Shown in pieces: positions 7,968 through 12,019 of a DNA stretch of 51,649 bases. The notes under the pieces are model-generated. The model saw nothing but the letters and a program-made list of their open reading frames with translations. It was not told the origin of the DNA and made no database searches. The position numbers were made by a program, and so were the translations under genes. Where the stretch lies: positions 1 through 51,649 of the forward strand of contig JAEOSK010000019.1 in the NCBI GenBank assembly GCA_016840405.1. Reading direction: 5' to 3'. The DNA comes from Candidatus Hermodarchaeum yapensis (GTDB lineage Archaea > Asgardarchaeota > Hermodarchaeia > Hermodarchaeales > Hermodarchaeaceae). Position 1 is the stretch's first letter. Every line of letters begins with the position of its first letter.

Positions 7968-8471
7968 ATGAGGTTAATGAGTGTGAATCCACTAAAACGT
8001 CTTTTGGGTTACATTCTCAGCTTTTTTTATCACAAACAGATTCACGCGTTCAAGGTTCAACTGAATGGTCGCACCTACTATGTGTGTGCGCGATGTTCTG
8101 GATTTTATCTTGGGATAATATTTGGCTTTCCCATTTCATTTGCCATGTTACTCTTCTTCCCAATCTTCTATAGTCTCGGTCCAATCGGTACAACCATCAT
8201 CGCGATTGGTCTAGCTCTTCCCGCCATGCTTGATTGGTCAACCCAACGACTTGCGCTACGAGAAAGTCGAAATGCTTTACGCTTTGGCACTGGTCTCCCT
8301 GCAGGATTCTCACTCGTCTGGTATTTAGTATCTCCAAACGGTTTCATCCTGAAGATTCCCGTCTTTATTGGAGTCCTTATCTTTCTCATCATATTCGGCA
8401 AGATTGACCGCCGTACTCCACCTGAAAGCGAGTTAGAAGAAAATTATGACACGGAATCGAAAGGGAGCTAA
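7968..8471 (+). CDS. DUF2085-like membrane protein
   Basis: VCARCSGFYLG and P..LDWSTQ....RES.N.LRF.TG motifs. Confidence 0.8.
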   Translation: MRLMSVNPLKRLLGYILSFFYHKQIHAFKVQLNGRTYYVCARCSGFYLGIIFGFPISFAMLLFFPIFYSLGPIGTTIIAIGLALPAMLDWSTQRLALRESRNALRFGTGLPAGFSLVWYLVSPNGFILKIPVFIGVLIFLIIFGKIDRRTPPESELEENYDTESKGS

Positions 8472-9256
8472 TCCTTGCTCGCTTTGATTCGTTTCATTGC
8501 AGTCCGAGCAGCATCTTGAACAGACTCATCCGGATCCTGAACAGCTTCTTCAATGTCTTTAACGGCTCCTTCTGGTAATGAGTCCATACCTGCTAATGTA
8601 TTTACGGCAATGGCTCTTTGTTCTGGACGATCCCCGCGCATTGCCTCTAAAAGCCCAGGTACTGCATCAGAACCGATTTGTTCAAGTGCGGTCTTGGCAG
8701 CATTGCGAACCTCCATGCTCTCTCCATCGTGGATGAATTCTTCCTCATCCGTAAGAAGATCAATCAACCGTGGAACGGCTTCTGGCACCTCATTCCCCAA
8801 GTTTCCAATAGCTAGCGCGGCTTCACCCCGCACCACTTCATCACTGTCAGACAGGGCATCAGTGAGTGCATCCTTTCCATCAATAGCAGCTGAACCCATT
8901 TGTGAAAAGACACGAGCCACGGCCCTTCGGACTTCATCATCATCATGTGTTAACAGGGATGATAGTGACTCAGAAGCTTCTGCAGCATCTGAACCCATAT
9001 AGTACATAGCCTCTGCAGCATACCGGCAAATATCATCTTCATCACTCGAAAGTCCCAGAATTAACATGGGTAATGCTTCGAGTAGTCGAGGATGGTCCCC
9101 TGCTTTGGATACAATTTCGAAAGCCGATCGTTGCATGTCCTCATCCGTGCCTTCGAGCAGCCCCAAGAGATCCTCCCAAGCATACTCATCTTCATTAACC
9201 AAGGCTAGGGCTTTCTGAGTTTCCCCATCTTCCAACAGCTTCTGGAGGTCTGACAC
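8468..9256 (-). CDS. Acidic HEAT/PBS-lyase repeat protein
   Basis: Repeated L...L.D.D..VR..AA.AL..IG units. Confidence 0.9.
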   Translation of the reverse strand: MSDLQKLLEDGETQKALALVNEDEYAWEDLLGLLEGTDEDMQRSAFEIVSKAGDHPRLLEALPMLILGLSSDEDDICRYAAEAMYYMGSDAAEASESLSSLLTHDDDEVRRAVARVFSQMGSAAIDGKDALTDALSDSDEVVRGEAALAIGNLGNEVPEAVPRLIDLLTDEEEFIHDGESMEVRNAAKTALEQIGSDAVPGLLEAMRGDRPEQRAIAVNTLAGMDSLPEGAVKDIEEAVQDPDESVQDAARTAMKRIKASKD

Positions 9257-9401: not shown

Positions 9402-10616
9402 CTAAAGACGCATTGTCCAATCATATTTTCGAAGCCCTAATGCGATTGTGACAGTAAGAAGCTGAATACCTGACTTACCACGAATTTGCGAATCCAAAAA
9501 TGCGTTCAGGGCATCACGCATTGGAAAACTAACCAGCAGTATGAGATTCTGGCGCTCACCGGTTTCCATTACAAGCTTCACTTCTTCAACTGCCCGCATA
9601 GCCTCGGTGAACTTCGTTAGCTGATTGGCTTCAACCTCCAATTGGATTAGCCCGAAGACATCCATGCCCACTCGCTGAGGATCAATTATCGTGCTAAACC
9701 CCTTGATTGTGTTATTTTGCTCCAGTCGGGCAACTCGACTCCGAATCGTTGCGTCACTAACCTTTAACCGACGAGACACATTCCGAAATGATAACCGCGC
9801 GTCCTGTTGCAGCAGGTTCAGGATCCGTCGATCCATCTCATCGAGATCAGCCCGGTGCTTTCGGCGTGATGGTTTTTCTGCTTCTGGTGTAGGATGATAT
9901 CCCAGATAATGAATGATGTCCCCACGATGTGCCATATTCAACCGATAGACATACAATGCCCGCCCTTTCATCTCAGAAGCTGAGGAGATAGCTTTGCATT
10001 GAAAACACCGAAACATCAGCCGCGGTTGGGCACTAATTGTGTTACAATTAAGACAATTGAAACCTAATTCCACTTTGTAGTCCTGTTGTTCGCCCTCCAA
10101 CGACTGCCCACAGGAGGGACACACCAGTTTTTTCCCCTTAGATTCAAATTCGCTTCGTGGAGCAACATGACCACAGGAAAAGTGTTCAATCATCGAATGC
10201 TGAACTAGACGACCACCCGAACACTTCAGACATTGATATTGGGGATGTAAATCCGGGGACTCACATTGCCGACACGCAAAAATGGTTTCCACCAGTTCCC
10301 CCTCAAGGAGGCCTGCCCGGTGAAGCTGTTCCAGTTTATCCACAGTTCCTTGGGCATCAGCTTCCAAGGTGAGTTCTGCCTCAGGATAGCGAAATCCATA
10401 GGAGGTCGATGAATCCAAAACGGGCTGCAATTCGACCAGGCTTCCGTCAAGCAATTGCTTGATTAACAGCCAGGCTCCTCGGTCTTCCAGTACAGAGGGT
10501 TGAAACGTCACAAGTCCACCCGCTTCCGTTGCATGTCCCAACAATCCTCTCGTTCGGGTGTTGATATGCTTTACTCTTATCACGAAACACCCAATCTTCA
10601 CAACCGCTTTCCACAA
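9402..10616 (-). CDS. TackOD1-like Zn-ribbon domain fused to a C-terminal Lrp/AsnC regulator; real start probably GTG 10510
   Basis: GFRYPEAE...L..L...GLL followed by six CxxC/HxxC pairs. C-terminal LDEMDRRILNLLQQDARLSFRNVSRRLKVSDATIRSRVARL is an AsnC HTH, followed by a RAM domain. SD-like GGGTGG precedes GTG 10510. Confidence 0.85.
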   Translation of the reverse strand: MWKAVVKIGCFVIRVKHINTRTRGLLGHATEAGGLVTFQPSVLEDRGAWLLIKQLLDGSLVELQPVLDSSTSYGFRYPEAELTLEADAQGTVDKLEQLHRAGLLEGELVETIFACRQCESPDLHPQYQCLKCSGGRLVQHSMIEHFSCGHVAPRSEFESKGKKLVCPSCGQSLEGEQQDYKVELGFNCLNCNTISAQPRLMFRCFQCKAISSASEMKGRALYVYRLNMAHRGDIIHYLGYHPTPEAEKPSRRKHRADLDEMDRRILNLLQQDARLSFRNVSRRLKVSDATIRSRVARLEQNNTIKGFSTIIDPQRVGMDVFGLIQLEVEANQLTKFTEAMRAVEEVKLVMETGERQNLILLVSFPMRDALNAFLDSQIRGKSGIQLLTVTIALGLRKYDWTMRL

Positions 10617-10628: not shown

Positions 10629-10890
10629 TTAAAAGACGACACAGAACCGCGCATCCGCGCAGAAACTAATTACAAAATTCACGTTTTTCTCTCAAGTATC
10701 TTGATTTAACTATGCAATTGCGTAGTTTTTTACCGCGGAACTACGCACGCTCCGTCTCCAAAGAATAGTACTTAGAGACACAGATACCGGGAAGCAACCT
10801 GGACGAGAATCGGCGGTCTCCGATGGCTCAAAAACCCACCCGGGAAGCACTCCCAAATTCCTGTCCCTCCCAAACTCCTCCCATAAAAAT

Positions 10891-11168
10891 CCGTTGTCCG
10901 AACCTCAAAAAAGCTCCTTTTATGAGCCACGGAGACCCGATCCCCGTCCGATCGTATGTAAAACGCCCCCCCACGGGGATGGCAACTGGTGGTGTTTTTA
11001 TACCTTTTTATGGACAACACAGGTGTCGCCGTCAGTTGGACGGAGACCCTAAACGCCTGTCAAGAGCCAGGAGGTGACAGCCCCTTTAGCGGGGCAGTGC
11101 CTGGCGATGAAGCAGGAACCGAACACCATCAGGCGAAATGTCCTAGTTGGGTAAGTTTCGGGCAACGG
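10891..11168 (+). mobile_element. Non-autonomous IS607-family derivative (MITE-like) without tnpA/tnpB
   Basis: Ends in GTAAGTTTCGGGCAACGG, resembling IS607 right ends. 10891-10907 is a 14/17 inverted repeat of 11152-11168. The left boundary is uncertain. Confidence 0.5.
10995..11004 (+). promoter_or_regulatory. TATA box for the omegaRNA-like transcript
   Basis: TTTTTATACC lies ~25 nt upstream of the structured RNA start (~11021-11028). Confidence 0.55.
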
Positions 11169-11238
11169 TAAAAGGGGAATGACCACAGGAAGGCTACCCT
11201 CGCATTTTGTGGTTGGGCACCTCCTTACCATTTTTTTT
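11021..11238 (+). ncRNA. IS607-type TnpB omegaRNA-like scaffold (to 11168) plus 3' guide/tail ending in T8
   Basis: Motifs in order: CCGTCAGTTGGACGG hairpin, AAACGCCTGT, GCCAGG/CCTGGC stem, GATGAAGCAGGAACCGAACACC, terminal stem ending AACGG. This order matches what I recall for IS607 tnpB 3' ends. T8 tract at 11231-11238. Confidence 0.75.
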
Positions 11239-11305
11239 ATCGTGAAAAAATATAAGCGCCCGTGAACCTCATGTGAAGTCAACGGGCGAAGCATCATAAA
11301 TCTGC

Positions 11306-12019
11306 TTAGGAACTCACTATTACAAAGTAAATGCTTAGAATGATTAGAATCCCTGCGACGATGATTAGTCCGTAGGTAAAGAGTATGAAAGGCGCAGTAT
11401 ATTGAACAAGAGCCATTAGAATTAGCCCAATGAACCAGAGAGTTTGACCAATCATGGCAATCCAAGTCCACGTTTTTGCCATACCCTGTCGAGCTTGCGC
11501 AATGCGATAGAGGACAATGAGCGGTATCAAGAGTAAATAGAAGATGGCAAGGAAACCGCCATAAGCGACAAGTGTAAACGGCATCGCTAGAAAATTCATA
11601 ACTCCATCAGATACGATTGTGACAGTGGCCGGTGTAGGAAGAATCCATACGAGTGCAAGAAAGGTAAGCGTACCTATGATGGGAAGAAAAATCGCCCAAA
11701 TCCGTCTCTTGAAAAATGGAAGACCAAGCATATACATTACCAAGAAGAAACCATGTAACCCAATAAAGCTCCAAGCGCCAAGATACGTTGGTAAGAGTTG
11801 ATCAACCGTTGCAGCAGCTGGCAAAACGTACATTGAGATAGCTAAGACCATAAAAGTTAGAAAAGCAAAGAAAGCACCCAGAAACAAGTTGTATAATGTA
11901 CAACTAGGCTCCTCGCTTCTAAGAGCCAAAATCAAGGCTATTAGAGAACCAAGGAGTGTAAGAACGCAGATTATGATAACTAGTCCAAAATGTAATGGTG
12001 TTTCAGCAATGTAGAGCAT
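11306..12019 (-). CDS. Stand-alone 7-TM membrane protein (HisKA_7TM-like sensor without kinase domain)
   Basis: Seven hydrophobic helices, beta-hairpin-like loop between TM4 and TM5, no cytoplasmic output domain. Confidence 0.65.
   Translation of the reverse strand: MLYIAETPLHFGLVIIICVLTLLGSLIALILALRSEEPSCTLYNLFLGAFFAFLTFMVLAISMYVLPAAATVDQLLPTYLGAWSFIGLHGFFLVMYMLGLPFFKRRIWAIFLPIIGTLTFLALVWILPTPATVTIVSDGVMNFLAMPFTLVAYGGFLAIFYLLLIPLIVLYRIAQARQGMAKTWTWIAMIGQTLWFIGLILMALVQYTAPFILFTYGLIIVAGILIILSIYFVIVSS

Follow-up and report, generated by a model that had tools for sequence, protein, structure and literature searches.

A recently inserted, gene-less tnpB derivative with a TATA-like promoter and an omegaRNA scaffold, probably of IS607 type, in the Asgard archaeon Candidatus Hermodarchaeum yapensis

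Introduction

Stand-alone, mobilized omegaRNAs that work in trans have been described (Altae-Tran 2021, as summarized in PMC10691335), as have PATEs that encode omegaRNAs (Meers 2023, PMC10055086), and IS605-derived PATEs that keep 3′ segments of tnpB were catalogued in haloarchaea in 2011. Among the parental transposon families, IS607 elements insert at a GG target with a preference for (G)GG, make no target duplication and carry subterminal direct repeats, and the IS607 TnpB uses a TGGG TAM together with a scaffold that ends in UCGG (bioRxiv 10.1101/2023.11.20.567912; PMC6188088). The reRNA of ISDra2 is ~150 nt long and carries a ~16-nt guide derived from the flank (PMC8612924).

Here, we analyze a 51,649-nt stretch of DNA (the whole of contig JAEOSK010000019.1, hereafter the window) from a 2.7-Mb, 86%-complete genome of Candidatus Hermodarchaeum yapensis; the assignment to Hermodarchaeota/Promethearchaeota bears out the probable Asgard origin suggested by a first-pass annotation of the letters. 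We propose, with a probability of about 0.8, that positions 10979-11168 constitute a gene-less, non-autonomous IS607-type derivative of a tnpB element, that is, a MITE- or PATE-like stand-alone omegaRNA in which a left end and a TATA promoter are combined with the scaffold, which inserted recently at a GG(GG) target and which may be used in trans or for homing. Like the stand-alone omegaRNAs and PATEs already described, it is devoid of genes and retains its ends and a complete scaffold; copies with an effector occur alongside it in the genome, its guide comes from the flanking DNA, and its use in trans is presumed. Unlike them, it resides in an Asgard host and has IS607-type ends, and its family stands apart in the fusion of a TATA box 20-26 nt from the scaffold start in nearly all gene-less copies, in the several origins of the gene-less form and in the scarcity of transposase (serine TnpA in 0/18 and Y1 TnpA in 1/18 related genomes). 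Stand-alone mobilized omegaRNAs being already known, the element extends them to the Asgard archaea and does not create a new category. It provides a well-bounded Asgard example of an effector-less guide-RNA unit with an archaeal promoter of its own. The coordinates of the element and of its surroundings are collected in Table 1.

Table 1. Features of the element, its scaffold and the adjoining genes, in window coordinates.
Feature	Position	Strand	Basis or remark
HEAT-repeat protein	8468-9256	-	adjoins TackOD1-AsnC gene
404-aa fusion of TackOD1 output domain, AsnC/Lrp HTH and ligand-binding domain	9402-10616	-	left neighbor
Native left flank (target side), ends ...CACGGGG	10958-10978	+	G005 empty-site comparison
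C7-ACG-G4 hairpin	within 10958-10978	+	native, predates element
Candidate GG crossover and TAM-like motif, GGGG	10975-10978	+	last bases of native left flank
Left end of mini-element, 46 nt, begins ATGGCAAC	10979-11024	+	boundary by empty-site alignment
G[GA]CAAC direct motifs	10981-10986, 11013-11018 (left end); 11161-11166 (right end)	+	motif positions
Archaeal TATA-like box TTTTTATA	10995-11002	+	22 nt before first scaffold base
omegaRNA scaffold (right end of element), 144 nt, five conserved helices, ends ...TTTCGGGCAACGG	11025-11168	+	covariance model and covariation
Stem GTC/GAC with CCGTC/GACGG	11025-11047	+	
Stem CCTG/CAGG	11056-11059 with 11113-11116	+	
Stem GCCAGG/CCTGGC	11066-11071 with 11100-11105	+	
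Stem GCCCC/GGGGC	11080-11084 with 11091-11095	+	
Stem CCGAA/TTCGG	11119-11123 with 11157-11161	+	
Would-be guide TAAAAGGGGAATGACCACAG, 16-20 nt	11169-11188	+	native DNA directly 3′ of right end
Native tail with hairpin and T8	11189-11240 (T8 11233-11240)	+	outside element; T7 in G005
237-aa ORF, convergent	11306-12019		no Pfam match; stop codon at 11306

Results and discussion

Identity of the scaffold

The TATA box at 10995, the stems that follow it and the AACGG that closes the scaffold at 11168 are all present as the first-pass annotation had described them. Folding of the single sequence is unexceptional in comparison with shuffled sequences (z = −1.28 for the plus strand and −2.02 for the minus strand), so the stems alone are unconvincing and the case rests on comparison. 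A covariance model (CM R1) was trained on 23 tnpB-linked scaffolds only, the window and all gene-less copies having been left out. CM R1 matches 11025-11168 over its full length (model positions 1-141 of 141) with 145.6 bits and E = 4.5e-36; this is its sole match in the window and the top score among the 11 in the genome. The same model also matches the 3′ ends of tnpB genes in Odin, in Heimdall and in IS607-type bacterial loci. RNAalifold returns exactly the stems listed in Table 1, with 9-12 covarying pairs, and compensatory changes support each of the named stems. When the 33 pairs are followed through the 23 gene-less copies, 95.5% of the cells pair and 12 of the 33 pairs show double changes, compared with 33-47% pairing when the partners are slid and with 0 of 500 shuffles that attain the observed value, although this family-wide covariation could largely be an inheritance from tnpB-linked ancestors. 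Taken together, the full-length match, the homologues at tnpB 3′ ends and the covariation argue on comparative grounds that 11025-11168 is a bona fide TnpB omegaRNA scaffold, as had been proposed from its motif order.

Searches against general RNA models add little to this assignment. Rfam 15, whether with the gathering score as cutoff or with E relaxed to 10, yielded no relevant match, and no curated Rfam model appears to cover this type of scaffold. Two chance matches were set aside: one to a snoRNA (E = 1.4) and one to CRISPR-DR37 at 10955-10986 on the minus strand (23.9 bits, E = 0.07), the latter a spurious alignment that straddles the native C7/G4 hairpin and the start of the left end and is not accompanied by an array. 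A tRNA/tmRNA scan returned none.

Boundaries and age of the insertion

The core at 11025-11168 is one member of a repeat family, of which the same genome has 10 more copies (67-81% identity) and related genomes have dozens. In every copy, the aligned similarity opens at GTCGCC and ends exactly after ACAACGG, and the 3′ flanks all differ, so that the search for other scaffold copies with different guides, which the first-pass annotation had recommended, was productive. The full extent of the insertion in the window is defined by the closest relative (G005), which is ~85% identical to the window's intergenic region on both sides of the element and from which the element is precisely absent. In G005, ...CAGCGGGG abuts TAGAAGGGGAATGACC; to the right of the joint G005 reads TAGAAGGGGAATGACCACAGG, and the window reads ...CACGGGG, followed by 190 nt and then by TAAAAGGGGAATGACCACAGG. 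At the level of the junctions, the window's ...CACGGGG[element ...AACGG]TAAAAGG corresponds to ...GCGGGG joined to TAGAAGG in G005. By this alignment the insertion occupies 190 nt (10979-11168), made up of a 46-nt left end and the 144-nt scaffold, and is not accompanied by a target duplication. It does not contain a coding gene, there is no remnant of tnpB upstream of the scaffold, and its site is the spacer between the gene for the TackOD1-AsnC regulator and a gene for a small membrane-protein-like product.

The comparison with G005 also determines what lies outside the element. The would-be guide agrees with its homologue in the empty site in 19 of its 20 positions, and the guide, the tail hairpin, the GGCACCT motif and the T-run all occur in the element-free G005 and are therefore native flank. 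Several earlier suggestions need to be revised in this light. The tail and its T8 are real (64 nt at 11169-11232, followed by T8 at 11233-11240), but they predate the insertion, and a consistent T-run was not found after the other gene-less copies; the T8 would nevertheless probably end a transcript begun in the element, even though it lies outside it. Similarly, AGGTGTC at the 5′ end is complementary to GGCACCT in the tail, but the 3′ partner is native DNA that G005 also contains, hence the pairing is coincidental. The candidate guide, finally, proves to be nothing other than the native right flank, and a search of the genome over 20 nt that allowed up to 4 mismatches gave no second target for it. 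A shorter match on contig C10 (16 nt, 2 mismatches) was rejected, as it is preceded by CGTTCACA and lacks a G-rich motif before it.

These results bear directly on the idea, favored in the first-pass annotation, that the RNA is a domesticated, trans-acting guide within a regulatory locus, kept by the host to steer a TnpB or TldR-like protein to a host target. Its appeal stems from an intact scaffold that has a promoter-like box on one side and a usable terminator on the other, and from a conserved block bearing the terminal 12-mer of the scaffold that sits 75 nt off. However, the terminator is older than the insertion, the guide is native flank and is not matched elsewhere within the mismatch limit given above, the contig is devoid of tnpB, and the syntenic locus lacks a scaffold in 8/8 relatives from the genus (G005, with its precise empty site, and seven more, searched with the CM with filters off). 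Absence from the syntenic site in close relatives had been named beforehand as the observation that would speak against this idea, and it is what we find; domestication is accordingly very improbable in our judgment, and one further point in its favor, a TnpB that has lost a catalytic residue, is taken up below. The empty site indicates instead that the insertion entered the locus recently, after this lineage and the closest relative sampled had diverged. The copy in the window looks young and intact, which speaks for recent mobility and not for a need on the part of the host.

Origin of the promoter

Archaeal TATA boxes center near −26 from the start of transcription. The 22-nt spacing of the TATA-like box from the scaffold thus predicts a start at ~11023-11027, at about the first scaffold base, and the arrangement recurs throughout the family: a TATA-like box ends 20-26 nt before the scaffold in 21 of the 23 gene-less copies. 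An A/T-rich 8-mer at −36 to −19 is present in the same proportion of gene-less copies (21/23), compared with 6/23 of the tnpB-linked ones and with a background of 22.6% at random positions in the genome, a contrast for which the binomial figure overstates independence because the sampled copies are related.

Three types of left end were distinguished, and full-length elements have the promoter motif of each type upstream of their tnpB as well (for example GGGTAATAC..GGAGTTAAAATA in genus g2 and GG(T/C)(T/C)TTTTATAC in genus g1). The sharing of these motifs with full-length elements argues that the TATA box belongs to the promoter that the transposon itself carries in its left end and that the loss of tnpB joined to the scaffold. 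The earlier statement that a promoter replaces the tnpB ORF is thus borne out for the position of the box, and the promoter is one that the transposon already had. Comparison at the level of motifs was needed to reach this result, as nothing alignable to the conserved left end was found upstream of the four tnpB copies of the same genome at their divergence. One gene-less copy, C30, has a longer left end that contains the ATGGCAAC motif internally. The sequence TTCAC, with which one type of left end seemed to open, was considered as a TAM and discarded, since the empty site of C30 puts the left end 77 nt further, beside GGGG.

A promoter in a mobile unit might also act outward, such that the main effect of the insertion would be to alter the neighboring genes, for example by antisense transcription into the convergent gene at 11306-12019, toward the 3′ end of which the TATA box is directed. 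Yet the T8 run precedes the stop codon of that gene and would end the transcript, and the flanks differ in all copies of the family, which thus show no specificity for a neighboring gene; we see only the slimmest of chances for such a role as a portable promoter.

Recurrent origin and apparent decay of gene-less copies

The 49 family copies that were sampled comprise 23 that are tnpB-linked, 23 that are gene-less and 3 partial remnants. Four copies in the same genome as the window (on contigs C6, C76, C17 and C10) and ~20 in relatives overlap the 3′ end of an ORF, and the ORFs concerned carry HTH_OrfB_IS605, OrfB_IS605 and Cas12f1-like TNB domains, which identify their products as TnpB. The 23 gene-less copies all start from one and the same scaffold base. 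The scaffold tree intermixes gene-less copies with tnpB-linked ones, and its branches with strong support require at least four switches between the two states; the gene-less form has therefore arisen repeatedly with the same 5′ cut, which argues that only derivatives combining the promoter with the complete scaffold spread.

The ages of the individual copies vary. Apart from the one in the window, the gene-less copies of this genome number four (C30, C45, C18 and C77). Empty sites are known for three copies of the window's genome, namely the one in the window, C30 and C45, the latter two being gene-less copies whose sites are likewise empty in G005. The gene-less copies C18 and C77 are common to G005 and absent from more distant relatives. 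Between these two and their G005 orthologues, scaffold identity is 84-86% and flank identity 85-96%, so that the scaffolds diverge as fast as the flanks or faster and show no excess conservation of the kind expected from purifying selection; some base pairs are broken and one copy has lost its terminal GG. Individual gene-less copies thus appear to decay. A near-identical donor for the window copy was not found, the best match being 81-83% identical.

The decay of C18 and C77 is what would be expected if the element in the window were an inert relic as well, a dead product of deletion in a tnpB transposon, one that yields no useful RNA and looks intact only by reason of its youth. Such a reading is also in keeping with the broken state of the subfamily-matched tnpB genes in the genome, with the scarcity of TnpA in the family and with a single-sequence fold of z = −1.28. 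It does not readily accommodate the scaffold start shared by 23/23 gene-less copies despite their several origins, the TATA-like box at promoter distance in 21/23 of them (vs 26% of tnpB-linked copies and 23% of the background), the CM score of the window copy, highest in the genome, or the recent insertion, which means that the element was mobilized as a unit. We therefore regard an inert relic as unlikely. The share of about half that gene-less copies make up, their recurrent origin, the fixed scaffold start with its TATA box and the scarce transposase all bear on how archaeal omegaRNAs are expressed and on how tnpB-only elements persist.

Probable assignment to the IS607 type

Evidence for the transposon family comes from autonomous relatives and from the junctions. 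In G029, a complete genome from another family of the phylum, a 199-aa Resolvase-domain protein with an N-terminal HTH overlaps the homologous tnpB from the upstream side, which is the IS607 arrangement, and a serine TnpA is encoded directly upstream of tnpB at L082, L083, L086 and L112. Among bacterial relatives of the TnpB, the closest ones (45-47% identity) have the serine TnpA immediately upstream, and the more distant cyanobacterial ones are accompanied by a Y1 TnpA. A GG-type junction without duplication is seen at two clean junctions, those of the window copy and of C30 (...AAGGGG[element ...AACGG], with GGGG in the left flank as in the window); that of C45 is ambiguous. The G[GA]CAAC motif also recurs in the left end of C30 and in the left flank region of G029. 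Serine TnpA in the autonomous relatives, the GG target, the ...CGG end and the lack of a duplication together support the IS607-type label that the element had been given.

Compared with described IS607 systems (CboIStron TnpA_S-TnpB, IS607/IS1535), the element is alike in its GG target, the absence of a duplication, its right-terminal GG, its direct subterminal motifs, a scaffold that ends in ...CGG and a G-rich TAM beside the left end, for which GGGG is the candidate here, drawn from two junctions. It differs from them in having no tnpA, tnpB or group I intron, and in residing in a genome in which a serine recombinase was not found. ISDra2, as an IS200/IS605 element, has a Y1 TnpA and a TTGAT TAM, and the autonomous relatives of the present family have a serine recombinase and a GG target.

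Searches of the window's genome found neither a serine nor a Y1 TnpA, and the 18 genomes of family f1 (G001-G018, 72-91% complete) contain a serine recombinase in 0/18 and a Y1 TnpA in 1/18. Despite this scarcity, tnpB elements and gene-less modules are plentiful in the family and polymorphic between species.

Candidate effectors and proposed mode of action

As the first-pass annotation had noted, there is no nuclease gene nearby: neither tnpB nor another nuclease gene was found on the 51.6-kb contig. The search for tnpB and RuvC-dead genes that it advised gave four relevant loci elsewhere in the genome. The clade-A TnpB of contig C6 is intact, with its D-E-D triad, and aligns with E = 1e-59 to the TnpB of ISDra2 (PMC8612924; PDB 8H1J/8EXA), the closest solved TnpB to the nuclease of this family. 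The scaffold start maps to codons just after RuvC-III, and, as in ISDra2, the scaffold covers the last ~35 codons of tnpB. The scaffold of the window belongs to a long-inner-stem subfamily whose tnpB genes in the same genome are both broken, C17 by an in-frame stop and C10 by a frameshift; intact C6 carries the other scaffold subtype, and its compatibility with the window scaffold is therefore uncertain.

The fourth gene, C76 (L009:410-1636, plus strand; clade A), has an intact 409-aa ORF in which the RuvC-III motif DRD has become DRG, with loss of the catalytic aspartate. Recent inactivation would account for this change, as would an early stage on the way to a nuclease-dead form. The right flank of C76 matches that of L030 in genome G012, which points to a shared insertion site, and the L030 copy retains DRD; the loss in C76 accordingly looks recent. 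TldRs are nuclease-dead, TnpB-derived, RNA-guided repressors. An omegaRNA-type scaffold and a genomic TnpB without the RuvC aspartate are points of similarity to them, and the latter is the further point in favor of a domesticated guide announced above, but the G012 orthologue weakens it, and, unlike TldR systems, the element stands without an effector beside it, does not keep a syntenic position in relatives and has a guide for which a host target was not found within the mismatch limit given above. Separately, at least a dozen other tnpB homologues (21-34% identity to clade A), with other types of scaffold, were noted on contigs C14, C67, C59, C40, C36, C73, C9 and C39.

Returning to the preferred reading, a non-autonomous mobile omegaRNA unit, we propose the following scheme, in which expression, the TnpB partner, the TAM and cleavage are all reasoned by analogy with described systems. 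Transcription would start ~23 nt past the TATA box, at the first scaffold base, and the transcript would run through the scaffold into the flank and halt at the pre-existing T8. A compatible TnpB encoded elsewhere in the genome, for which the clade-A protein of contig C6 is the candidate, would bind the scaffold and trim the 3′ end to a guide of 16-20 nt. The resulting complex could cut the element-free allele, which presents both the GGGG TAM-like motif and the matching target, and would leave uncut the occupied allele, in which the target follows ACGG. Repair of the cut from the occupied copy would keep or spread the insertion, a form of homing analogous to that demonstrated for bacterial TnpB elements. 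That a second genomic match to the guide was not found at up to 4 mismatches is in keeping with homing and speaks against a target in the host; the element belongs to the biology of selfish elements rather than to host regulation. In practical terms, the empty allele of the sister genome makes a ready target for it, and a G-rich TAM and a partner nuclease are at hand as candidates.

A broader interpretation, which we put forward tentatively and consider doubtful, is that Asgard archaea of the Hermodarchaeota type keep a pool of independently transcribed, gene-less omegaRNA modules. These modules, with a promoter fused exactly at the first scaffold base, would have evolved repeatedly and would move or persist without a resident TnpA, a few TnpBs taking up a dozen or more different guides in trans; the conserved 12-mer block upstream of the regulator gene could then be an older, recruited fragment. 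Were this so, it would constitute a natural multi-guide arrangement in which effector and guide are split, resembling an intermediate on the way from TnpB to CRISPR-Cas12.

Conserved upstream block and a neighboring full-length element

Upstream of the TackOD1-AsnC gene, a block of ~200 nt (10706-10911) is 68-86% conserved in eight relatives from the genus. It contains a palindrome, ACTACGCAATTGCGTAGT, with an extra GAACTACGC half-site, an operator-like combination, as well as a C-rich stretch and an invariant CCCGTTGTCCGAACCTC whose reverse complement bears TTCGGACAACGG, the terminal 12-mer of the scaffold. This is the sole occurrence of TTCGGACAACGG in the genome outside scaffolds (5 hits, with 0.24 expected). 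The possibility that the block is itself an older, oppositely oriented scaffold was explored with the CM with filters off and is unsupported, the best score being 10 bits.

A further observation concerns the site of C30. In genome G007 (contig C15), a full-length tnpB element (L064:300-1700) lies ~7 nt from the position at which the gene-less C30 is inserted, and it is bounded on both sides by an identical 13-nt sequence, TAGCAGAATCCTT, which is unexpected in that IS607 and IS605 elements make no target duplications.
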